This document shows, in pieces, positions 4,138 through 34,800 of a DNA stretch of 37,882 nt. Source of the DNA: Neolecta irregularis DAH-3. Lineage: Eukaryota. Below the pieces are notes generated by a model that saw nothing but the letters and a program-made list of their open reading frames with translations, searched no databases and was not told the origin of the DNA. Positions within the stretch are counted from its first letter, which is position 1. Each line of letters begins with the position of its first letter. The stretch is from the NCBI GenBank assembly GCA_001929475.1, contig LXFE01004415.1, forward strand, positions 1-37,882, in the 5' to 3' direction. The position numbers were made by a program, and so were the translations under genes.

Positions 4138-4855
4138 TCAGCGATCTTCAGCCCACTCGTTTTCTTTTCGAATTTGCGCCTAGTAATTGAGTATACCATA
4201 GACATAAAGAAAAAGACCTCCTCCTCAGGGGTAAAATCGTTGACAATATTGAAAGCCTTTCGGATTTCTTCTGGCGACTTTCCTTTTATCATGTTGGCGA
4301 CAGTTTTACATCCAACGTCAAGAAGTGGTTTTATGTCCATGTAATTCGCTGCCTAAAATGATTGTTAACATATGAAGGAGCAAGATCACGATTCGATTTA
4401 GGTTAAAAATGGTGAAAGCTTCATCGGCGTGATGAATGCGGGAGAGGACATACTAGAATGATTTCAAACAGCATTTCTTGGTCAACCTGCATGAACTTTT
4501 GGTCCCATTCTTCGATATCAGTGCTCTTTTTTCGCGTATCGTCAACCTCTTCTTCTAAGGCAACTGGGTCTGCTCGGTGGTGATCGCAGTATTCCAGAAC
4601 CTGTGGTGCTTAGCCCAAGGATGTAACACATAGCACATCGGCAGTACCTTCTTGAGAACAGGAGTGGTAACGTTTTGCAATGGGATGGCATCTTCACTCT
4701 CACCAACATCAGCAATCATATGTTTGATGAGGATGCTTCGTTCGGCGACTTCGCGATCTGTGCAGACGTTAGGATATGCCACACAATTAGACGCAGGTTG
4801 TTATACCGACCGAAATAACCACGCCATCGCTGGACTGGAGGTTTACTTTGGGCAT
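4138..4855 (-). CDS. SKP1: SCF E3 ligase adaptor Skp1
   Basis: [74 protein letters not shown] and C-terminal ENEWAEDR. Four GT-AG introns. Confidence 0.97.
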
Positions 4856-5121: not shown

Positions 5122-6704
5122 ATGTTTTTTCTTACAAAGAAGCGGGCACTCTACGGTCTTCTAGTCCTTTTTCGACTTTATTTTGCCTTTCAGCCTTCGT
5201 ATATCCATCCTGACGAGCATTTTCAGGGCCCAGAGGTCTTGGCGGGTAAGGCGCTCGCTTACATTTTGATTTGTAACAAGGCATTTCAGGAGATTTATTC
5301 AAATGGGAGACAATCAAGACATGGGACTTCAGTTCAGATAAACCAATCCGTGGAATCCTTCCGTTGTGGATCTTTTATGCAATTCCGTTATTATCAACAC
5401 ATCTCTCGCGAGGTTATTTTTTCATTCAATCCTTCTGATTTCAGCCTATTTAAATCCAACATCGATATTCTATGCTTTACGTGCAGCGTTCTTTGTATAT
5501 TCATTCGTGATAGGTCTCACATGTCCTACTGAAAAGTTTAATATTGTATAGATTTATCACTTTACTTCTTAACACAAGACTTTACCTCGGTGCTCGTTTA
5601 CGCTTCAAGTTATATTACATGGACATATCAAACTCATACACTTTCAAACTCTCTCGAAGCGATTATATTGCCATTGATCATTGTAAAAGGGAAACAGTTG
5701 AAGATTATGGTTGTTTTTCCGTACTGTGATTTCACTATTCTGATCCCCAGAATAATCCTGTTACAGCAATGATGTTTGGAGGCCTTGTATCAATTGGGAT
5801 ATTTACCCGTGTGACTTATCCTATATTTATACTTCCAACCTGCTTAGAACTTATTCCACTGTTCGCCCGACGGTATCCATCATCCTTCTCGTAATGAGCT
5901 TATACCTTAGTCCGCTCCAGATATTCATCGTGAGCATGTCTTTCATGTTCATCAGCAGCATGTGTATCGCCGCGGATTCATATTACTATTCATCATTTCA
6001 AATAACCCCTCTTAATAACCTTCGATACAATACCCAATCTACCAATCTCTCAAAACATGGGCTCCATCCCCGACTGACACACCTGCTCGTAAATCTTCCG
6101 ATGTTGCTTGGGCCAGGATTATTCATCCGACCCTCGTACATCCCAAATATCATCTCGGCTATCGTTATCCTTAGTATGATACCGCATCAAGAAGTTCGGT
6201 TCCTTCAACCACTGGTATCGTTATGGCTCGCAGGGCGCAAGCCTAGGTACAAACTATGGTGGTGGTTGTGGATATTATTCAATATTTTCATGGCGACACT
6301 GATGGGATCCTATCACCAAGCTGGAGTTATACCAATGCAAACTCACATCAGAGAGGTATCTAGCGGTGAAGTCGTATGGTGGAAAACATACCCCCCTCCA
6401 TCTTACATTCTTGGTTCAAATAATATCTCCACTTTTCACGCCATAGGATATGATAAAGAAGCCCTTTTCGAATATACCACCTCGCATAACTCATCGTGTG
6501 CTGCCCTCCCCTTTTCTTGTTAACGTGTATAGGTATCTTGTCCTTCCTACCCTACTGAAAGACTCCTTTGAAGGATTCTATGAGGTTTTTCGCTATAAAT
6601 CCCATATTGGATTCGATGATTTGGATTTTAGTGATAGTATACTGGTTGGACTGAAAAATATTTGGTCTTTGAGAGGTTTGAGTTTAATGCAGAGATTGGA
6701 TTAG
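5122..6704 (+). CDS. SMP3: GPI mannosyltransferase 4 (Smp3/PIG-Z, GT22)
   Basis: [31 protein letters not shown]...[33 protein letters not shown] and WWKTYPPP; multi-membrane hydrophobic pattern. Six short GT-AG introns. Confidence 0.93.
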
Positions 6705-15929: not shown

Positions 15930-16080
15930 GGTATATTATATGGGTGTGGTGTTGTTGATTCAGGTGGTTAGGCGATGCGATTGACACGAGACATGCGAGA
16001 CAGGTTGAAACATTTAATTCCTTTCAATCAAAGCAGCCCACTCGCCTGTTCCTTTCATCCAGATGTGCAAAAAGTAAGCA

Positions 16081-18721
16081 ATGGCCAACTATACACCACA
16101 TCCTTCAACATTTTCAAACCATTCATCGCCATTATTGCCTGATTTTGCACTAGAACGCCGCTCTGCGGTCAGAACATGGGACCAAGAAACAGTTTGCGAA
16201 TGGCTGCGTTCAATAAAGTGCCAGAAATACGAACTAGTCTTTACAGGAAAGTTCTATTTGCATGGCTGCGTATTCTTATTCGATCCAGATAACCACATCA
16301 CCGGCGATACTTTGCTCGAATGCGACCAGCAGGAACTCAAGGAACTGGGAATCACAAAGGTGGGCGACCGCATTCGCATTCTCGTTGCAATAAAGGCACT
16401 GCGTACTAAACACAAAAAGTCAAGGGTACTACTCCTATAACCGGTATGCGTATTCAGCATCATAGGCTCCGTCTGAAAACACCAGCAGCGCTCCCAGTCC
16501 GTATGATCCGCAGTATGTGCATCCAACTCCTCCACCAGAACATTCTTCAGGTCTGTCAAAGCGCTTCTCCTCAGTATCGCCATCCAACCCGCGCTCACTG
16601 CAGTCGCCAGCACATGATGTCGGTCATGGCCATCAGAGAAACCAGCCAAGCATCGATGCAAATGCGAATATTATGTCCATAGACAGCGTCAGACAGGTAG
16701 CTTTATCAACTGGTGCCGTATACTAACCTGTACCAGAGCTGTGTAAAGTTCATCGGCGAAGGTGGTCAAACTCGCATTGTCAACATCCAGAACTGTACTA
16801 GCGCGGGATCAATTCTCCAGAAAGCGCTAAAGAAATTCAATCTTCAAGATGATTGGACCAAATGGTGTGCGTCAGTTACCACAGAGAGCGGGTCTGCTCG
16901 CAAAGTGCCCTCTGAGGAATTAGTACAGATATGCCACGATCCATCACGTTCAGAACGCGAACGGCTGATCCTTCGATTAACAAAGAAGCCTCCTTCAGTA
17001 GAAGATTACAAGAGGGCGCATAGCATTGCACGCGAACAGCAGGCAGCAGCAGCTATGGCGGGTAATCTTTCATCAAATGCAAAAATGAGAAAGCTCGAAA
17101 CGTTCTTTGGCGAAAGGCCGAGTCCGTCATCAAACAGCTCTCCATCCCAAACACCAACCAGCGGGTCACATCTCAAAGGCCCTCAAAAGCGTCTGCGGAA
17201 TTTCTTTGGCCAGAGACCTCCCAGCGAGCTTATTTCCTCGAATTTGGCAGAATATTTTCCAGGTCATGGCAAGGAGGTCCTCGAACAAACAGTTCGGAAT
17301 TCAATGATGCGAAGATCGCGATACCGGTTCAGCGTGGCCACCCAGGGCAGCTCTGTATCAACTCGTGATGCTCCTCCAGTTCCCGTTGTCAACGAATCAT
17401 GGTTACAGGGCAATACATCAGCCGTATCTCTTGCTAAACCTCCTGCTCGACCCCCCAGACCTCTATCACTACGGCGGGTCATCCCGGCTATTCCTGATGA
17501 AGAGAGTCAAGAGAATCAAGAATCTTCTGAGAATCAACAAGACTCGACACCAGATGATATGCCCTTTCGTCGAGTCTCTGCGGATCGAAGAACAAAATCA
17601 TCAAGTCGTAAATCATCACGAGCGTCACATGTCTCTCATCTATCAATAGCAGAAAACCCATTGCTAGAGGAAACTGAAGAAGCAACAATTGTTCCCTGCT
17701 CAGCTTCCCAAACATGTATTCAAATTACAGATGTCGATGGTGAAGCAGTCAAGGTCGAGGGAGAGTACGAAGAAGGCATCTTCCTTGACGAGGAGGAGCC
17801 TGATTATGACGACCATGGTCCTACGAAATGGATTCGAGGAGCTCTTATTGGAATGGGCAGTTTTGGCAGTGTTTATCTTGGAATGAATCAAATCAGCGGA
17901 GAACTAATGGCTGTTAAACAAGTCGAATTACCTGAACAAGAGGTCCAGGGCGAACAGAGAAAGAAAACTATGTTGGATGCTCTGCAACATGAAATCGCTT
18001 TATTGAGAGAATTACAGCATGAAAATATTGTGCAGTATCTTGGTACATTGCATTACAAGTCGAAAATACTAATCGAATTTCAGGTTCGAATTCAGATGAC
18101 ACGCATCTAAATATTTTCCTCGAATACGTTCCAGGCGGCTCGGTAACTGCTCTTCTCAACAATTACGGCGCCTTTGAAGAGCCATTAATTCGAAACTTTG
18201 TTCGTCAAATCCTGCAGGGATTGAGTTACCTCCACGAACGCGATATCATTCATCGGGATATCAAAGGCGCAAATATTCTTGTCGATAACAAAGGAGGAAT
18301 AAAAATATCCGATTTTGGTATCTCGAAAAAGGTTGAAGCGAATTTACTTTCAACCGCCCCGAATCATCGTCCTTCACTTCAAGGATCTGTTTATTGGATG
18401 GCACCAGAAGTTGTAAAGCAGACCTCCTATACAAGAAAAGCGGATATTTGGAGTCTCGGCTGTCTCATCGTTGAAATGATGACTGGCACTCATCCATTTC
18501 CTGAATTTAGCCAGATGCAGGCTATTTTCAAAGTATCCCCCTTTTCCCTCATTACACAGTCTGACAACATATAGATCGGAACTTCGTGTTCGCCAGACAT
18601 ACCGCCAGCAGCAAGTGCCGAAGCTCAAGATTTTCTCTCGAAAACATTTGAGTTGGATCATCACCTTAGACCAACCTCAACAACATTGTTGATACACGAG
18701 TTTCTGGCTCCACTGACATAG
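16081..18721 (+). CDS. STE11: MAPKKK Ste11/Byr2 (SAM + Ras-binding + kinase)
   Basis: SAM domain ([10 protein letters not shown]...[15 protein letters not shown]), [20 protein letters not shown], kinase motifs [27 protein letters not shown] and [11 protein letters not shown]. Five introns; the first (16247-16288) would be GA-AG. Confidence 0.96.
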
Positions 18722-21695: not shown

Positions 21696-24421
21696 ATGGA
21701 TTACGACTCGAGTGCGGGGAGACAGTGGAGTATTCAGCAATGTCAACAGCGACAAGATCGTCCTTCGTCGGACTCGCAACTGCGGACTCCAAAGACAGAC
21801 AGGCACATTTTGCCCTCGCCGCATATTGGCGCGAGCGACACAGGCTCGCTGCCTTATCAAGCCTCAAATTCACCTTCTCGTCGAGATCTTGGCAGACTGA
21901 GCCAAAGTGAGTCTTTTGTGCCTTCTTATCCGACTTCGCCCAATCTTCCGCCTCCTTATTTCAGCCAGTCAACCGGGAATATAATACAATCGGCACAGCG
22001 ATCGACTATTTCGCGCTGTAGTCCCGCGCATCAAGACGCTTTTTCCCACCAAGGCGATGGAAGCTACAACTATAGTGGACAAGCCTCGCCTATGTACCGC
22101 GCCAGTCCAGGAACTGTTGACGCTTTTCAGTTCCCGCAATTATCGCCTATGCATGCTCAGTCTGTTTATAACCATGCGCCGCCTTCCGCAGTCCTCAATG
22201 TTCGGCGAGCTGCGGGATACGACAGCCCCGCATCGCACAATCCACAGTTCTATAACACAGAATCCATTTCTAGACGACCACCAGCAGCACAAACAACACC
22301 GGGACTAGGTTTTGACACTCCATTAACATCTCAAGGAACAAGATCGCCTAAGCGACCATCAACACACGCAATTGAACCGCCCCAGCGATTTCGCAGGGTG
22401 CGCGCACGGACAGATCTGGTTCCCAAACGCCACGAAACCCCGAAATTTCGGAGAGCTAACCCCGATGGCGGCTTCATAAGTGTATTTCCATATCTGCATT
22501 TGCATTACTGACGTAGATAGCCTCTCCAGGCTATGACTATGCACTTGAACTCCACATTTGCTATTTGCAACCCGAATTTTGTATACGATATATCGAAGAA
22601 TCCCCGGAGAGTCCTTACAAAGCCCAGTAAAGGAGTCAAAAACGATGGCTACGACAATGAAGATAGTGATTACATTCTCTATGTCAACGATACTCTTGGG
22701 AACGGAGAGGGTCACAAGTACAGTGTCCAATTATGGTCTGCTAATAAGATAGATATCTCATCCTCGATGTACTGGGTCAAGGCACCTTTGGACAGGTCGT
22801 AAAATGCCAAAATCTCAAATCCCGAGAAGTCGTCGCAATAAAAGTCGTCAAAAATAAACCTGCATATCTAAACCAGAGCAGAATGGAAGTCAATATACTG
22901 CATCTGGTATCTCGTGCGTGTAGGCCTGCGGCTAATTGATTTAGTTGAATCAGCAATTGGATAAACACGATGAACATCACATTCTTCGCATGAAAGATGA
23001 TTTCATGCACCGTAACCACTTATGTCTTGTTTTCGAACTTCTTAGTGTGAACCTTTACGAGTTGATCAAACAAAATCATTTTCGCGGCCTTAGCACAAAT
23101 CTTGTTCGAGTATTCACAGCACAGTTGCTTGATGCTTTGACGGTATTGAATGAAGCAAAGTTGATACACTGCGACTTGAAACCCGAAAATATTCTACTGA
23201 AAAAGCATATATACTTTATCTACTCAACTGACCCTCAAGCTTGGACAGTCCGGCTATTAAAGTCATTGATTTCGGATCCGCGTGTCATGAGCAAAAGATA
23301 GTTTATACATATATTCAGTCTCGTTTCTATCGAAGTCCTGAAGTGCTGTTGGGAATACAATACAACTCGTCAATTGACATGTGGTCTCTTGGCTGCATCG
23401 TTTGCGAATTATTTCTAGGACTGCCGCTGTTTCCAGGAAGTTCAGAATATAACCAAGTATCGAGGATGGTCGAGATGCTTGGGTAAGACCAACTCTCTAA
23501 AATGTGACTCACTTCAGGACGCCCCCGACCTGGATGCTTGAGAAAGGTAAGCAAGGCGCCGAGTATTTTGACAAAACAACGGACGAATTTGGAGGTCCTC
23601 GATATCGATTAAAGACCATGGAACAATATTCGAGGGAGCACAATACGAGCGAGCAACCCAGTAAGAAGTATTTCTCTGCTACAACGCTTCCTGAAATCAT
23701 CAAAACATACCCTTTACAGCGAAAAGGTTTATCTCAAGCAGAAATCGATAAAGGTAGAACGCTCTGATTAACTGCCTTAATAAGAATAGAGAAAGCCAAT
23801 CGTTTGTGCTTTATTGACTTTGCGCAGGGTCTTCTAAACCCGAATCCGTGGGAACGCTGGACCCCACAACAAGCTAAACTCCATCCTTTTGTTCGAGGAG
23901 AACCATTAGCTGTTCCCTTTGTACCTCCTGCCGCCCAGCTTGTTCGCCAGCCTCGCCTTCCTCATAGCACGAGCTCAAGTATTTCTCGCCAAACTGCGTC
24001 GCATTCTTCACACACAATGTCACCACCACACACGAGTGCGTATCCTCCTACGTATAACGGCGCGCCCATTCATCCTTATGGACCAACCTTGTATAGTCCA
24101 CCACGGCCTCCAGCCATATCAAGTCAATACCTACCATCACAACCATATCATAGTTCTCATCAATCGCATCTTGCTCCTTTATACAGCTCTCGTCCGACAG
24201 CCACCGGTCCTCGTCCGCGCGCAAACACCCAGATCGGCCCTATTCCCTCTCAAATCGCAGCTCATCTGATGGCTCCAGAACAACGAAACGCCCAACCTAG
24301 TCCTGCCGCATATTATCCTTCACCTGAGAACATGCTTTCAAATATGGATTTTAATGGACAGCATCATGTACGTGGACGAAGTAGCACACGGATTCTCGAG
24401 GAAGGCACTCTACCGTTTTGA
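21696..24421 (+). CDS. YAK1: DYRK-family kinase Yak1
   Basis: [60 protein letters not shown] and [13 protein letters not shown]. Six introns, one GC-AG (23205-23239). Confidence 0.95.
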
Positions 24422-25703: not shown

Positions 25704-28352
25704 ATGTCCAGGTTCTTCAAGGGCAGCGACAGCGACAGCAGCAGTAGTGATTCATCAGACGACGAGATCTACTCTGATAATGAGCGGGCGATATCGGAAG
25801 AAGAGTCTTCCAGTGAAGACGAATCTAGTCTAGAGTCTGGTGGTGAATCAGATGCTCCGAAAAAGAAGTCCGCAAACCGCTTTTTGCGAGGCGGTGAGAG
25901 TGACGAGAGCGACTCGGATGATGCGAAGCGTATCGTAAAAAGCGCAAAGGACAAACGGATGGGCGAAGTTGAAGCATGCATAAAGGTGATTGAAAATGCG
26001 GAGAAAATCAATGATTGGAGTGCTATTTCCGTCGGTATAGTCGTCTTTCCTTTGAGTAGCCTAAGACCACAGAATTCGATAAATTGAATAAAGTTGTTCA
26101 AAAAGTCAGCCAGTCTGGAAAAACACCTCGCATTTATATTAAAGCAGTCGCCGATCTTGAGGAGTTCATGAATGAGACGCTTCAGAAAGAGAAGGACGCA
26201 AAAAAGAAGTTGAACGCCACGAATGCAAGAGCTTTAAACCAAATAAAACAGAGAATTCGAAAGAACAATCGAGCCTATGATCAAGAAATCCTAAAGTATC
26301 GTGCTGATCCCGAAGCTTTCGAAGAAGAGGAGGAAGTTTATGAAGAGGTTAAAAGGCCAAAATCGAAACCAGGCGAGGATGAAATTATTGTCGATGGTGT
26401 TTCGAGACGTGGAATTCTTGCGGATGGTGATGATGAAGGGTTTGCTACTGTTGGGAGAGGCGGGAAGGCGGTGCTTTACACACCTGAAGGAATCTTCAAG
26501 CATTTAACTGCCATTTTTGAAGCTCGAGGAAAGAAAAATACCGACCGCTCAGAGCAAATCAAGGTTCTTGAGAAACTTCGCGATGTTGCCCATACTTCTC
26601 TGCAGAAAATTGCTGTTCTTTTAGCCCTTATCTCTGCTCGGTTCGATTTAAGTGCCGGTACCGCTGTATATATGACGGTAGAGCATTGGAAAGCGTATGA
26701 CCTTTTGCGAAATTTGTGCGCTAATTGCAGTGCTGAAACCGAAATCAATATTTTGATCGATGTTCTCGAAACAGACCGTTCATTTGTCATTGTTGATGAT
26801 GGTATGGAAATCAACGAAGACGAATTGCCCCAGCCTGGGGAGGACGGTATCACTAGAGTACGCGGAAATGTCATGTCTTTTGTCGATAGGCTTGATGACG
26901 AACTTACTCGGTCATTACAAAACATCGATCCGCATACTTCGGAATATATTGATCGACTGAAGAATGAAACTAGTCTCTACAATCTCCTTCTTGGGTGTCA
27001 AATTCTTTTCGAACGGATAGATCCAGGCGAAAGTCTTAATCGAGTTGTTTCCCGCAGATTAGAGCGGTTATATTTCAAGGAAAGTGAAGACCTCGCATCT
27101 CTTATTAATAGCTACAGCCGGAACAAGTTATCACAACTCTCGAGCAAACGACTTGGTCATCTTTACCTTCGCACATGGATAGTTTTTTAACTCCACGAAG
27201 TCTGAGTATCAAATCCTCAGAACTCATCCATATTCTCTGCGTCCATCTTTACAAGAAGGGCACTGGTTTATCCCGCACCCGAGCAATGCTCTGTCACATT
27301 TACCACCATGCTCTACACAATCGTTATCACAAAGCAAGAGATATGCTACTTATGTCACATTTGCAAGAATCCGTTCATCTTGCCGAAGTTAATACTCAAA
27401 CTCTGCACAATCGAACCATGGTCCAGTTGGGGCTTTGTGCATTCAGACTCGGAATGGTATCAGAATCACATTCATGTCTCCAGGAAATTTGTGCCGCCGG
27501 CAAGCTGAAGGAGTTACTGGCCCAAGTATCTGCTTCCTAGCATCTCATTTAACAGTTCAGGGCATTCAGTCGCAGCGATACTCACAAACAACCCCTGAAC
27601 AAGAAAGGCTTGAACGACAACGACAGTTGCCTTTCCACATGCATATCAATCTCGAACTGATTGAATGTGTATACCTAACCTGTTCTATGCTTCTAGAGAT
27701 TCCAAATATGGCAGCTGCTGGAACTTTGCCCGAATTCAAAAAGAAGGTCATCAGCAAACCTTTCCGCAGAATGCTCGATTATCATGAACGTCAAGTCTTT
27801 GTTGGGCCTCCTGAAAACATGCGAGACCATATAATGCAGGCATCTAAAGCATTTTCAAACGGAGATTGGGTTAAGACGAAGGATTTGATTCGGTCCGTTC
27901 GGATATGGGATATTATGCCTCAAAGCGAGAGCATAAAAGAAATGTTGACACAGAGGATCCAAGAAGAAGGACTGCGTACTTATTTGTTCTCGTATTGTCC
28001 GTTCTACGATACGCTTTCCATCAGCGCTGTTGCCGGTATGTTTGACTTGCCCGAGGATAAAGCAATGGCTATTATGTCGAGAATGATAATGAATGAAGAG
28101 ATTCCTGCGTCGCTAGACAATATTGACAAGACGGTTATCTTTCATCGTATAGAAATCAGCAGATTACAAACCCTCGCTCTAACTTTGACTGAGAAAACCA
28201 CGGGACTAGCTGATGCCAATCAAAAGTTAGTCGAAGCCAAAGCCCAAGGCCAAGGAGAAGGACAACGAAGACCACTTCGACACGATAAGGATAAGCCTGC
28301 TCGAGGACGAAAAGTTGAGTTTAGAAACGCCGGGCGTGCTGTTCGAACATAG
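25704..28352 (+). CDS. NIP1: Translation initiation factor eIF3 subunit c (Nip1)
   Basis: MSRFF plus acidic/Ser tract, [57 protein letters not shown] and PCI region. Introns include 26695-26730 (in frame) and 27080-27117 (GA-AG). Confidence 0.97.
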
Positions 28353-28701
28353 ACATTCCATTTTTCTTTCTACATGTGTGCGTCTCATTCAAGGCAAGGT
28401 TGTGGTGTGTAAATACAAGATATGTGTTTAGACCATGTATCGCCGAATATCATTACATTGTCTCAAGTATTGCCTATCACGGGTTGAATTGTGTAGCAGT
28501 TCATAGAAATGACTTCACGCTGGAGTTGAATGCGGGGATTTCCCGTGACACGTATATATCAAATCTGCTATTTCACGTTCCAGCCCATACTAGGCTCTGC
28601 TCATTTTACTTTGTCCTTTCGGCAAGTTGACTTTTTTAAAAACGAGCTGCGAGTGAAAATCTCGCTTTTACAGGTCTGCTGACCGGCAGCCGTTGATAAT
28701 A

Positions 28702-30105
28702 ATGACATCTTCGTCATCATCCGTTCTCAATGACTTTCCCACAGAGATCTTGCTACGAATTTTCGAACACATTGAACCCAGAACACGGTCGCAACACCTC
28801 GAAGATTACTGGCCTTCTTATCTTGACCTCGACGAACCGCTCGATCATTCGCATCTCTCGACCGCTCTTTCAAGGATCCTGACATTGAGTGCTGTGTGCA
28901 AATTCTGGCGTGCGATAGTATCCAGTTGTGGCTTTTGGAATGTATTTGATTGGACAAAGACTATTCAATGGCATCAGCCGGTATCACAGCTCCGCGACTT
29001 TCATCGTCATATTGCGGATGAATTACCCCGAATCGCAAATGTTCGCGAAGTTATGATTAATCTCAAACTTTTACGGTTTCCCGATTACATCGAAACGCTT
29101 GGTCGTATCCTGCGGACGGGAAATGTTGAGGTTATCTGGGTCAAATTTAGAAATAACCCTGATTTCCACTATATCAACGACAGCAATTCAAGTAAAGGTA
29201 TTGATGCACTCATTTCCAAGGAATTTCGATCCATGCATCGCTACCTAAGAAAATTGAGAGTCTTGAAAGTACGCGATTGTCCACTAGATCCAAAAAACTG
29301 GAACAGATTGTTCAAAATCATTCCGGACAGTGCAATTAGAAGAATCACAGAACTTGACATTGCTTGCAAAATGTCCGACTCAACGCTAAACTACACTCTT
29401 CGAGAATTCTCGAAAAGAATGCGACGGTCTGATGCAAAAATATTATGCTTGTCTGAAGCAACTCAAAATGTTCATACTTTTTGGGCTTCTCCGTTATCTT
29501 CATTAACATCTTTTCTTGGTTGCTTCGGTCGTCTTGTTTCGTTAGAAATTGATTACACTACAATTGCACGAGCGTATAAGGATGAAGCTACTGATAAAGT
29601 AAAGAAGGCATGTATCGTCGAATTTCCTCATCTTTCGCGCGAACATCAATACTGTATGAACATCCTTCTCTCTACGGTTTTGAGGAATACGATATTGGAG
29701 TCTCTTAAAGTTTTATGTCTGGACTGGTTTGATGGTGAAGCTCTTGTTGTATTCAAGGAGAAAACTGGATTAAAATCCTTGGAAGTTGGATTCTACGATC
29801 AAATGGTGTTTTCAAGGTTGCGGGACGATAACCCGAATCTAACAACTCGAACGGAACAACTCGACTGGATAACTGCACAAAATGAAGCTCTGCTTGCAAA
29901 GGATATACATGTTCAATGGCAAGGTATTCGGGAGCTTTGTACGCGACTAACCCCGTTCTTTCATCATGCAGCAATCCATTTACACGACGAAGATGATTTT
30001 GACGATTTCGCCCCGATAGTTTTACCAGATTTTTTCATCGAGCCGGTCGTTCTTCCGGACCCATTAGGTCTCCTCGAAGATGAGGAGTTGCAAGAATTTT
30101 GGTGA
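28702..30105 (+). CDS. Intronless F-box protein with LRR-like C-terminal region
   Basis: LNDFPTEILLRIFEHI...LSAVCKFWRAIV F-box with an insertion, repeated LxxLxL segments and an acidic tail. Single uninterrupted ORF. Confidence 0.8.
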   Translation: MTSSSSSVLNDFPTEILLRIFEHIEPRTRSQHLEDYWPSYLDLDEPLDHSHLSTALSRILTLSAVCKFWRAIVSSCGFWNVFDWTKTIQWHQPVSQLRDFHRHIADELPRIANVREVMINLKLLRFPDYIETLGRILRTGNVEVIWVKFRNNPDFHYINDSNSSKGIDALISKEFRSMHRYLRKLRVLKVRDCPLDPKNWNRLFKIIPDSAIRRITELDIACKMSDSTLNYTLREFSKRMRRSDAKILCLSEATQNVHTFWASPLSSLTSFLGCFGRLVSLEIDYTTIARAYKDEATDKVKKACIVEFPHLSREHQYCMNILLSTVLRNTILESLKVLCLDWFDGEALVVFKEKTGLKSLEVGFYDQMVFSRLRDDNPNLTTRTEQLDWITAQNEALLAKDIHVQWQGIRELCTRLTPFFHHAAIHLHDEDDFDDFAPIVLPDFFIEPVVLPDPLGLLEDEELQEFW

Positions 30106-31836: not shown

Positions 31837-34800
31837 ATGGATGATCTTCAAACAGATCTGGGTGTCAGTCTTGTTGACCAAGACCAGTTTGAACGAGATG
31901 TGGCTGCAACGGTATTTACCTGAATCTCTAAACTTTGATTAAGTAGATCAAGGCCGACAAAGCTATTAATGAACGCGAAGTAGAGTTGGACAAGAAACGT
32001 CTGGAAAAGACTGAAAAAGACAAGGCGTAGGTCCCCATCTTACTATTGTACAAACGTATAGGAAAGCAAAGAGTCAAATACGCCTTCTAGAGGCTCGTCT
32101 GGAACATCCAAATACAAAAATTAGTACCAAGCAGTCCATCCGCGAACAGATCCGCGAACAAGCAAGTCACTTGGAGAAATATACTTACTAGAAGGAATCT
32201 CTTGTGAGTCAGCTTGAAAGAGATATTTTGGAAATTAACAGCCGTCTTGAAGAACGTCGGGAAGAAATTACCGAAAAGTCTACCTCGGCTACCGGTTCGT
32301 TTCAATGAAACGATTCGTTTTTGACATGTAGATCGTATTTCCAATGAAACAGAAAGAGAGTATCTTATAAGAACCGGGAAAATCACTCCTTTTGCAAATA
32401 TAAACGGGCTCGAGCGGGCATCTCATCATGAGAATGGTGATGGACGAGAACCTGGTGATGAGGAGCAAGTGATGTCTCATCGGGATTTACGAGAACCAGG
32501 ATTTGAGATTGAAACAACTTGTAAACGGTCTCGTCTGTCCAAAGGTCACAAGAACTCGGACGAAGAAGGTACATATCGTGATGAAGAGATTTTAGAATCG
32601 GAGTCTTCTGGTGATGATGATGACTCCTCGACAATTGGGGACTCGAGAAAACGACGACGAAAGGCGCGCAAGGGTATGCAGATTGTCACTGGAATCGATG
32701 ATGGAGATGAGAAACTATATCCCAGACGTATTTCTTTGTGGTGCGAAAGACGGAGTCGTGCACGAGAGAAATCTCAAATAGCCGTTCCGGATACTTTGGA
32801 TGACTCTCTACTCGAGGAAGAGTTCTACAAACCGCATCCTACTGAGCCTGATACAATTTACGATGGCGGATACGCAATTCCTGGCGATGTTTATCTTGGC
32901 CTATTCGATTATCAGAAAACATGTGTTCAATGGCTCTGGGAGTTGCATTGTCAGGGAACTGGAGGTATTATTGGCGATGAGATGGGCCTTGGAAAAACTA
33001 TTCAGATCATTGCGTTTCTAGCAGGACTGCATCACTCGAAAAAGTTGACAAAACCTGTTATCGTAGTATGTCCAGCGACAGTTATGAAGCAATGGGTGAA
33101 TGAATTTCATAAATGGTGGCCACCTTTACGGGTTGTAATTCTACATTCTAGTGGAAGCGGGATGGTAAATATCAGCAAAGAAGAAATGCTTGAGAAAGAG
33201 TTGATTAGTGTTGTTCAAGGCCAAGGCAAGAAAGCCATTCCAAAGAATGCCTCTTTTGCCGAGAATATCGTAAACAGGGTAGTTCAAGATGGTTCGTGAC
33301 ACTAAGGAAGTACTCACGTTTAGGGCATATATTGATTACCACGTTTACCGGGACAAGGATATATCGAGATCAATTGCTTAATGTCGAATGGGGCTACTGT
33401 ATTCTCGACGAAGGACACAAAATCCGCAATCCCGATTCCGAAATCTCACTAGCATGTAAACAAATAAAAACCGTCCATCGAATAATCCTCTCAGGAACTC
33501 CGATGCAAAATAATCTAGTTGAATTGTGGAGTCTTTTCGATTTTGTATATCCAGGTCGTCTGGGAACATTACCTGTTTTCCAACAACATTTTGCCGTTCC
33601 TATTAATATTGGCGGATATGCGAACGCGACAAATGTTCAGGTTCAGACGGCATATAAATGTGCTTGCGTCCTGCGAGATTTGATTAGTCCTTACCTCCTT
33701 CGAAGAATGAAAGTAGACGTTGCAGCGGATCTTCCAAAGAAAAGTGAACAAGTTCTTTTCTGTAAACTCAGTAAAGTGCAACGAGCAGCTTATGAAGAAT
33801 TCATTGGTTCAAAGGATATGGAATCGATTTATAATGGTAAACGTCAAGTCTTGTATGGAGTGGATATCCTCCGAAAGATATGTAATCATCCCGATTTACC
33901 TGCGAGAGACACCCTTTTAAAGAAGGCGGATTACGACTATGGGATGGGTGAAAAATCTGGGAAAATGCAAGTTGTCAAAGCTCTTCTTGAATTATGGAAA
34001 AAAGGGGGCCATCGTACGTTATTATTTACTCAGACACGACAGATGTTGGATATTCTTGAGAAATTTGCAAAACGGCTTGGTTCGTACGAGTATCGGCGAA
34101 TGGATGGGAGTACGCCAATTGGACTTCGACAATCGCTTGTTGATGAGTTTAATGAAAACACCGAGATTCATTTATTCCTGTTGACGACTCGAGTTGGTGG
34201 ATTGGGTATTAATCTTACTGGAGCAGATAGAGTGATTATTTACGATCCCGATTGGAATCCATCTACCGATGTTCAAGCTAGAGAACGAGCATGGAGACTG
34301 GGTCAAAAGAAGGATGTGACGATATACCGACTCTTGACTGTTGGAACGATAGAAGAAAAGATTTATCATCGACAGATATTCAAACAATTTCTCACAAACA
34401 AGATTCTTAAAGACCCTAAACAGCGACGATTTTTCAAAACGAATGATTTACACGACCTTTTTTCTCTTACTGGGGCAAATTCCAACTCTACGGAAACAGG
34501 AGACTTGTTTCACGGAAGTGAAATTTCGTATGGAAGCAACGACCGCCGTGTAAAGAAGCACAATCTTGGAAAAAACGACGATAATCCATCGGTATTAACG
34601 ACCATTGGTGGGGTAGCTGGAATAGAAGAATTCCAAACACAAGACTCTGAATTGCAAAACAACGACGAAAACAACGACGACGATACCCGGATTCTCGCAA
34701 ATTTGTTTGAAAGTGCAGGAGTTCACAGTGCACTTGAGCATGATTCAATAATGAATGCAAGTCGTCAAGAAACAGTACTAGTTGCCAAAGAAGCAAGCAG

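Follow-up and report, generated by a model that had tools for sequence, protein, structure and literature searches.

A probable ancient GA-AG intron in the SAM-domain region of the Ste11/Byr2-type kinase gene of Neolecta irregularis

GC-AG introns are an accepted minor class that makes up ~1-2% of introns in fungi, according to PMC3577648 and PMC11590231. GA-AG introns are also already known, but they are far rarer, their donors pair worse with U1 and in fungi they are very rare; for human introns, PMC5714493 gives 14 GA donors in 222,263. Here we describe two putative GA-AG introns in one contig of Neolecta irregularis DAH-3, a member of the Taphrinomycotina (class Neolectomycetes). The contig, LXFE01004415.1, was analysed at its complete length of 37,882 nucleotides (nt) and is referred to below as the window. 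Our main subject is a 42-nt stretch at 16247-16288, inside the SAM-domain coding region of a byr2/STE11-type gene, which we take to be an ancient intron that now has a GA donor and is most likely—with a rough probability of 0.75—still spliced. The second case lies in the gene for eIF3 subunit C (eIF3c). As in GC-AG introns, a non-GT base at +2 would be tolerated at these sites given a strong remaining donor.

The best-described system of this kind is that of the copepod Eurytemora affinis, in which GA and GG donors account for ~10-12% of introns and are presented as recent, lineage-specific gains (PMC5714493, Robertson 2017). According to the same source, these donors require the exon to end in AG and nearly always have A at +3, the introns are constitutive, with removal required for full-length proteins, and automated gene models that take only GT or GC are compromised in this species, canonical-only pipelines hiding such introns (PMC5714493). 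Together with Oikopleura dioica, E. affinis is listed as an outlier for GA-AG (PMC7072748, Frey & Pucker 2020). Similarly to the copepod sites, those of Neolecta combine an exon-end AG with A at +3, and the deposited gene models seem compromised by them; unlike in the copepod, a single contig accounts for the two cases, and both occupy ancient conserved positions. Since both positions are ancient, the two GA introns would have arisen by T>A substitution in old GT introns.

Two single-gene examples offer a closer comparison. In human FGFR1-3, a GA-AG intron (reportedly described by Brackenridge et al. in 2003) is said to be alternatively spliced and to depend on a canonical site 6 nt upstream. 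Like this intron, those of Neolecta have the GA donor within an otherwise consensus-like 5' splice site, a context in which the human donor is reportedly used with efficiency; unlike it, neither Neolecta site has a GT 6 nt upstream. Intron 12 of Trema orientalis SYMRK is a GA-AG intron whose function was shown experimentally and whose ancestral state was GC, as given in PMC10668435. Here the likeness is a single-nucleotide change at +2 that produces a GA donor in a conserved intron; the differences are that the relatives of Neolecta have GT and that for Neolecta we infer function.

Among fungi, RNA-Seq of Ganoderma lingzhi yielded 35 GA-AG junctions, or 0.038% (PMC11590231), and RNA-Seq of Fusarium graminearum lists GA-AG among 0.31% 'other' sites (PMC3577648). 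Both agree with Neolecta in indicating that fungal spliceosomes can use GA-AG, but their frequencies are about a hundredfold below the two in ~50-70 introns seen here, a ratio that comes from one small, possibly selected window. At the G. lingzhi rate, ~0.03 GA-AG introns would be expected among ~70 introns, and the two found in one contig—a single window of a 14.5-Mb genome—are therefore a hint that the frequency of GA donors is raised in Neolecta. Our literature search returned no report of non-canonical splicing in this organism, and the main text of its genome paper, supplementary methods aside, contains neither 'intron' nor 'splic'.

The open reading frame (ORF) that carries the SAM domain (16078-16437) has as its top database match the deposited model 'Protein kinase byr2 [Neolecta irregularis DAH-3]' of 825 residues, here P0001. 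Pfam matches to SAM_1 (E 6.8e-17; residues 33-109 of the ORF), Ras_bdg_2 (6.1e-24) and Pkinase place a SAM domain at the N terminus of the product and a kinase domain at its C terminus, along with a Byr2-type Ras-binding domain; this is the architecture of a Ste11/Byr2-type mitogen-activated protein kinase kinase kinase (MAPKKK), a kinase of the mating pathway, and its best relatives carry the names byr2 or MAPKKK. Positions 16237-16298 read GTCTTTACAG/GAAAGTTCTATTTGCATGGCTGCGTATTCTTATTCGATCCAG/ATAACC, where slashes mark splice boundaries, the junctions being ACAG/GAAAGTTC...GATCCAG/ATAAC. The 42 nt keep the reading frame and contain no stop codon, and P0001 translates them as 14 additional residues; their excision yields VFT/DNHITG. 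The original prediction, which was made from the sequence alone, had placed an AG/GAAAGT donor here and held that excision gives a normally spaced SAM core and retention 14 extra residues. This is borne out by the sequence, as is its statement that splicing from the GT at +5, here taken to the unchanged acceptor, creates an immediate stop (AAA TAA). Note that CAG also closes the upstream exon: the boundary can be written in four registers, and only the GA-AG register has an AG acceptor.

The 14 residues, whose presence in relatives would have counted against the original prediction, are missing from all ten close relatives, exactly at the position of the 42 nt. In a wider set of 160 relatives, both flanking anchor residues could be aligned in 121; the spacing is standard in 108 of these and shorter in one, and the remaining 12 have 11-48 additional residues of unrelated sequence. 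The nearest solved SAM domain, that of PDB entry 3bq7, likewise leaves query residues 57-70 unmatched, a gap of 14 residues. Since S or G opens 10 of the 12 inserts in the wider set, these would seem to be read-through of an intron of the type [A/G]/GT, phase 1, in unspliced gene calls. Short proteins from unannotated fungal contigs in which the intron at the SAM site is read through, with inserts beginning with S or G (P0132, P0164, P0193, P0197, P0236, P0246, P0251, P0261, P0273 and P0280), show, as far as their sequences tell, that unspliced gene calls enter protein databases.

We compared the DNA of 19 metagenome loci that encode the SAM region. Fourteen are uninterrupted, and five (L002, L003, L005, L006 and L012) have extra DNA inside the SAM match; L005 and L006 are near-identical, which leaves four distinct intron-bearing contigs. 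All five interruptions are GT-AG introns (76, 62, 53, 53 and 47 nt, in the order given) and interrupt the codon following VF[E/M] between its first and second bases, i.e. at the same codon and in the same phase 1 as in Neolecta. The donor of L012 is G/GTAAGT, from which that of Neolecta differs solely by the A at +2. Sphaerosporella and Ascobolus, two members of the Pezizales, have proteins similar to those encoded by the five loci. GT-AG introns at a matching codon and phase in relatives argue that the 42 nt are an old intron with a T>A change at donor position +2; by this comparison, the stretch is an intron common to two ascomycete subphyla in which GT has turned into GA.

To place the stretch among its neighbours we used an intron census of the window, made with a heuristic dynamic program that combines codon log-odds with intron scores and uses no transcripts. 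It returned 71 GT-AG introns in 16 gene regions, and a strict filter kept 52 of these as credible. The program serves as a rough census only, and no junction was judged by it: its first run chained across genes, and the per-gene run chose a wrong GC-AG intron (27171-27220) in eIF3c over the homology-supported GA-AG intron. It also missed the weak donor GTTTTC of a GH20 hexosaminidase gene, where a 38-nt GT-AG intron with an unusual T at +3 (20410-20373, minus strand) joins ...AFNKMN to RLHLHITD.

Canonical splicing offers no substitute for the GA-AG solution. Every GT, GC and AT donor in 16215-16290 was listed with frame-keeping AG or AC acceptors, and no canonical alternative in this interval stays in frame with the invariant Y and F at standard spacing; all of them delete invariant residues or leave part of the insert. 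Sequence comparison shows that only exact excision of the 42 nt restores the conserved SAM sequence, and against a SAM profile of seven relatives the excised form scores 123.8 bits versus 107.6 bits for the retained form. The stretch also resembles the local introns: its length is inside the 34-60 nt range (median 38) of the 52 credible GT introns, its G+C content is 40.5% (introns 38.5±6.5%, exons 45.4%), and its codon score falls at the 4.5th percentile of exon windows. Freedom from stops is uncommon, being found in one of the 11 local GT introns with a length divisible by three. That one case is a canonical 36-nt GT-AG intron of eIF3c (26695-26730, plus strand).

The second GA-AG intron is the one that cannot be read through without cost. 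In eIF3c the conserved reading runs in frame 0 to ...RLYFK and continues in frame 2 from PEQVITTLE..., and removal of 27080-27117 alone joins the two frames to give LYFK/PEQVI, in which KPEQVI is the sequence also found in several orthologs. Of the 99 orthologs of full length, 98 have P directly after K, and the Q and V that come next are present in 92 and 97. The deposited model, P0012, instead splices from a GT at 27084 to an AAG at 27127, which yields K-EI-ITTLE, with EI in place of the conserved PEQV; this junction would bypass a CAG that is well spaced from a branch-like TTAAT. Against an ortholog profile, the GA-AG form scores 179.2 bits and the deposited junction 163.9 bits. N. irregularis eIF3c is present in one copy among the 120 matches listed, and the gene is otherwise intact. 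Going by its reading frames, the gene needs GA-AG excision to avoid a frameshift. Two ortholog models carry an insert exactly at K/P that begins with V and ends with Q, and as this fits read-through of a phase-0 GT...CAG intron, the position of the eIF3c intron would be old too. The original prediction that the same hexamer follows AG in eIF3c, at 27080, is correct, and strong support for its central claim of a GA-donor intron comes from the relatives, the orthologous GT-AG introns, the absence of a canonical alternative and this eIF3c twin.

A further feature common to the two GA donors is their context. Both match all six flanking positions of AG/G.AAGT, in agreement with the earlier statement that the donor fits the U1 consensus everywhere except at +2, while the 52 credible GT donors match at one to five of the six. 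None of these 52 has AAGT at +3 to +6, and AG precedes the donor in eight; the local canonical donors are weak (GTAnnn). Since the filter favours consensus-like donors, this contrast between GA and GT donors is not an artefact of the filter. AGGTAAGT has no copy in the window, and GTAAGT occurs six times against 12.6±3.5 expected; none of the six is a census donor, and three of them, inspected in context, showed no intron. The perfect flanks are what one would expect if pairing with U1, and then with U5 and U6, compensates for the mismatch at +2. To this extent the explanation given in the original prediction fits the data; the compensation itself is a hypothesis. As for the octamer AGGAAAGT, it is not enriched (three copies versus 1.37 expected; 15 of 100 shuffles reach three); what is beyond chance is that two of the three copies fall exactly on junctions defined by homology. 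It should be kept in mind that both GA sites were first noticed for their consensus look. A scan of the 53 AG/GAA sites on the gene strands of the window gave no further plausible GA case. Two other GA picks of the finder (6653-6692, and 4991-4922 on the minus strand) were rejected for their poor contexts and lack of homology support, and counts of ORF bridging by donor dinucleotide were swamped by background and dropped. In all, the contig has two GA-AG introns against 52 strictly filtered GT-AG introns (71 in total, a heuristic count).

These observations also bear on the alternative that the T>A change at +2 ended splicing, so that a dead intron has turned into coding sequence and SAM helices 2 and 3 of Ste11 are separated by an insert of 14 residues. 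The 42 nt are indeed in frame and stop-free, P0001 retains them, and GA donors are normally very poor, as the human and G. lingzhi counts quoted above illustrate. In the AlphaFold2 model of the retained form (mean confidence, pLDDT, 72.7) the five SAM helices are kept and residues 57-66 form a protruding hairpin (pLDDT 63-75). By this model, retention need not destroy the SAM fold and the retained protein could fold, which keeps the exonised intron under consideration. However, in the single-copy, essential eIF3c a frameshift results unless the identical hexamer is used for splicing, and perfect flanks in both GA donors and in 0 of 52 local GT donors are expected if they are needed and unexpected for a decayed site. 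The intron-like G+C content, the poor codon score and the 16-bit loss against the SAM profile also count against an exonised insert, and on balance we regard it as unlikely.

A different use of the same intron was suggested in the original prediction: GA splicing could be inefficient, and the retained and spliced forms would switch SAM-mediated interactions of Ste11 off and on. The argument for such regulated retention is a single one, namely the in-frame, stop-free intron and its place between SAM helices 2 and 3, a region that is presumably used for SAM-SAM contacts. The orthologous introns (47, 53, 62 and 76 nt) are none of them in frame, so this property is not conserved; moreover, the length of the eIF3c GA intron is not a multiple of three, so a link between GA donors and retention does not hold here. 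We give this idea very little credence.

Several points weigh against a spliced GA-AG intron in byr2/STE11. The first concerns the biochemistry of the donor: in yeast and mammalian in vitro systems, a GA 5' splice site blocks the second catalytic step. Our database searches found no transcript-derived protein fragments of N. irregularis. Being in frame and stop-free, the 42 nt permit translation of the retained form, which, as modelled above, keeps its helices. The CTTAT motif that would serve as branch site is weaker than the CTRAY of most neighbouring introns. The third copy of AGGAAAGT (4277-4284, minus strand) is ordinary conserved coding sequence of Skp1, and a reading of the sequence 30-70 nt downstream of it shows no clear YAG acceptor; as it cannot be a donor there, the octamer alone is insufficient. 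RNA was sequenced in the genome project (PMC5309816), but neither deposited model uses its GA site. Finally, the assembly is the source of the A at +2. A base-calling or assembly error, or a rare variant in the material that was sequenced, could have produced it, with T as the true base and both sites as ordinary GT-AG introns: each is one substitution away from G/GTAAGT, and the orthologous site in L012 is exactly G/GTAAGT. This would, however, call for two independent, identical errors at +2 of two of ~50-70 introns within 38 kb, in a genome for which 199-fold coverage is stated (PMC5309816), and the corrected sites would be the only AG/GTAAGT donors of the window, which makes an error highly improbable.

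Weighing these points, we favour splicing of the 42 nt as a U2-type GA-AG intron. Exact removal restores the alignment, an orthologous intron exists, and the stretch has G at +1, an AG end, a branch-like motif and a suitable length. In our proposal, a spliceosomal U2-type intron of byr2/STE11 would have been inherited from the common ancestor with Pezizomycetes, and a T>A change at +2 in Neolecta would have made its GT donor GA. The remaining donor, AG/G.AAGT, would be fully complementary to the conserved 5' end of U1 and would later pair with U5 and U6, which may offset the mismatch at +2. The short intron would end in CAG ~10 nt past the branch-like motif, of the form yTnAy. Use of the same hexamer at the start of an eIF3c intron that must go to keep the frame would suggest that the organism can use this donor. 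U12-type introns, which are removed by the minor spliceosome, have a donor /[AG]TATCCTT and a branch motif TCCTTAAC; this class was rejected, the donor here being GAAAGTTC and nothing within the 42 nt resembling TCCTTAAC. Both GA introns contain the heptamer TCTTATT (16273-16279 and 27099-27105), located 9-12 nt ahead of the 3' end, where it may act as branch site in both, and the chance of a 7-mer shared between them is ~0.07 by rough arithmetic. RNA folding sets neither GA intron apart: they fold no better than shuffles (z +1.4), with 192 of 200 and 189 of 200 shuffles folding at least as well.

The features of both genes are collected in Table 1.

Table 1. Positions of the two candidate GA-AG introns, their signals and the genes that contain them (window coordinates)
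Feature	Position	Strand	Basis
byr2/STE11-type MAPKKK coding span (deposited model P0001)	16081..18718	+	Exact mapping of P0001; Pfam matches
SAM-domain coding region, split by 42 nt	16174..16404	+	Pfam SAM_1 E 6.8e-17, match in 2 stretches
Proposed GA-AG intron, 42 nt, phase 1	16247..16288	+	Homology; orthologous GT-AG intron in Pezizales-like relatives; profile scores
5' splice-site context AG/GAAAGT, GA at +1/+2	16245..16252	+	Read from sequence; 6/6 flanking match to AG/G.AAGT
Possible branch site CTTAT, A 10 nt before 3' end	16275..16279	+	yTnAy match; inferred only
3' splice site CAG	16286..16288	+	Read from sequence
Intron 2 of byr2/STE11, canonical GT-AG, 40 nt	16426..16465	+	
Intron 3 of byr2/STE11, canonical GT-AG, 40 nt, branch TACTAAC	16697..16736	+	
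Intron 4 of byr2/STE11, canonical GT-AG, 41 nt	18043..18083	+	
Intron 5 of byr2/STE11, canonical GT-AG, 42 nt	18533..18574	+	
eIF3 subunit C coding span (deposited model P0012)	25704..28349	+	
Second GA-AG intron, 38 nt, phase 0, AAG/GAAAGT...ACAG/	27080..27117	+	Frame repair; ortholog residues; profile

Other non-GT sites were noticed in the window. On the plus strand, 32162-32194 is a probable GC-AG intron of 33 nt (CAA/GCAAGT...TAGAAG/) in the N-terminal part of an SNF2-family gene: its excision would remove an in-frame TAG, and there is no GT-AG solution of sensible length at this place. Its GC donor shares AAGT at +3 to +6 with the GA donors. In a DYRK-like kinase gene, a frame change is required after ...ENILLK within an interval that has no GT; a GC-AG intron at 23205-23239 or 23205-23248 (plus strand; donor AA/GCATAT, branch ACTGAC) fits, and would give the usual 7-residue spacing. 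The F-box of the gene at 28657-30102 has ~30 extra residues relative to the Pfam profile (28777-28872, plus strand) and was considered as a third in-frame intron; it has no splice-like signals and is probably a genuine loop insertion. An Rfam scan of the window gave no match, and an assembly gap of 10 N lies close to the contig end (37608-37617).

In this study we have traced a 42-nt stretch in a Neolecta MAPKKK gene to what appears to be an ancient GT intron that became GA and is apparently still functional, with the other donor positions at consensus amid weak local donors (GTAnnn). The first consequence concerns annotation. The deposited models of byr2/STE11 and eIF3c, which admit canonical sites only, are probably wrong, P0001 by 14 extra residues and P0012 by EI for PEQV. 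Two public models would be corrected in this way: the SAM domain of STE11/byr2 would lose its 14 spurious residues, and eIF3c would regain PEQV.

The broader proposal is that N. irregularis uses GA donors of the AG/GAAAGT type as a regular minor class, at the percent level and as common as GC-AG, tolerated through the perfect complementarity of their flanks. We offer this tentatively and hold it to be rather doubtful on present evidence. If true, it would be the first fungal case of percent-level GA donors, which would have come from ancient introns drifting from T to A at +2, and public annotation would mis-model every affected Neolecta gene. Should the pattern extend genome-wide, annotation and read mapping restricted to GT and GC would be hiding such introns in fungi, and Neolecta would help to ask how a spliceosome takes a GA donor through both catalytic steps, as a fungal counterpart of Eurytemora and Oikopleura.

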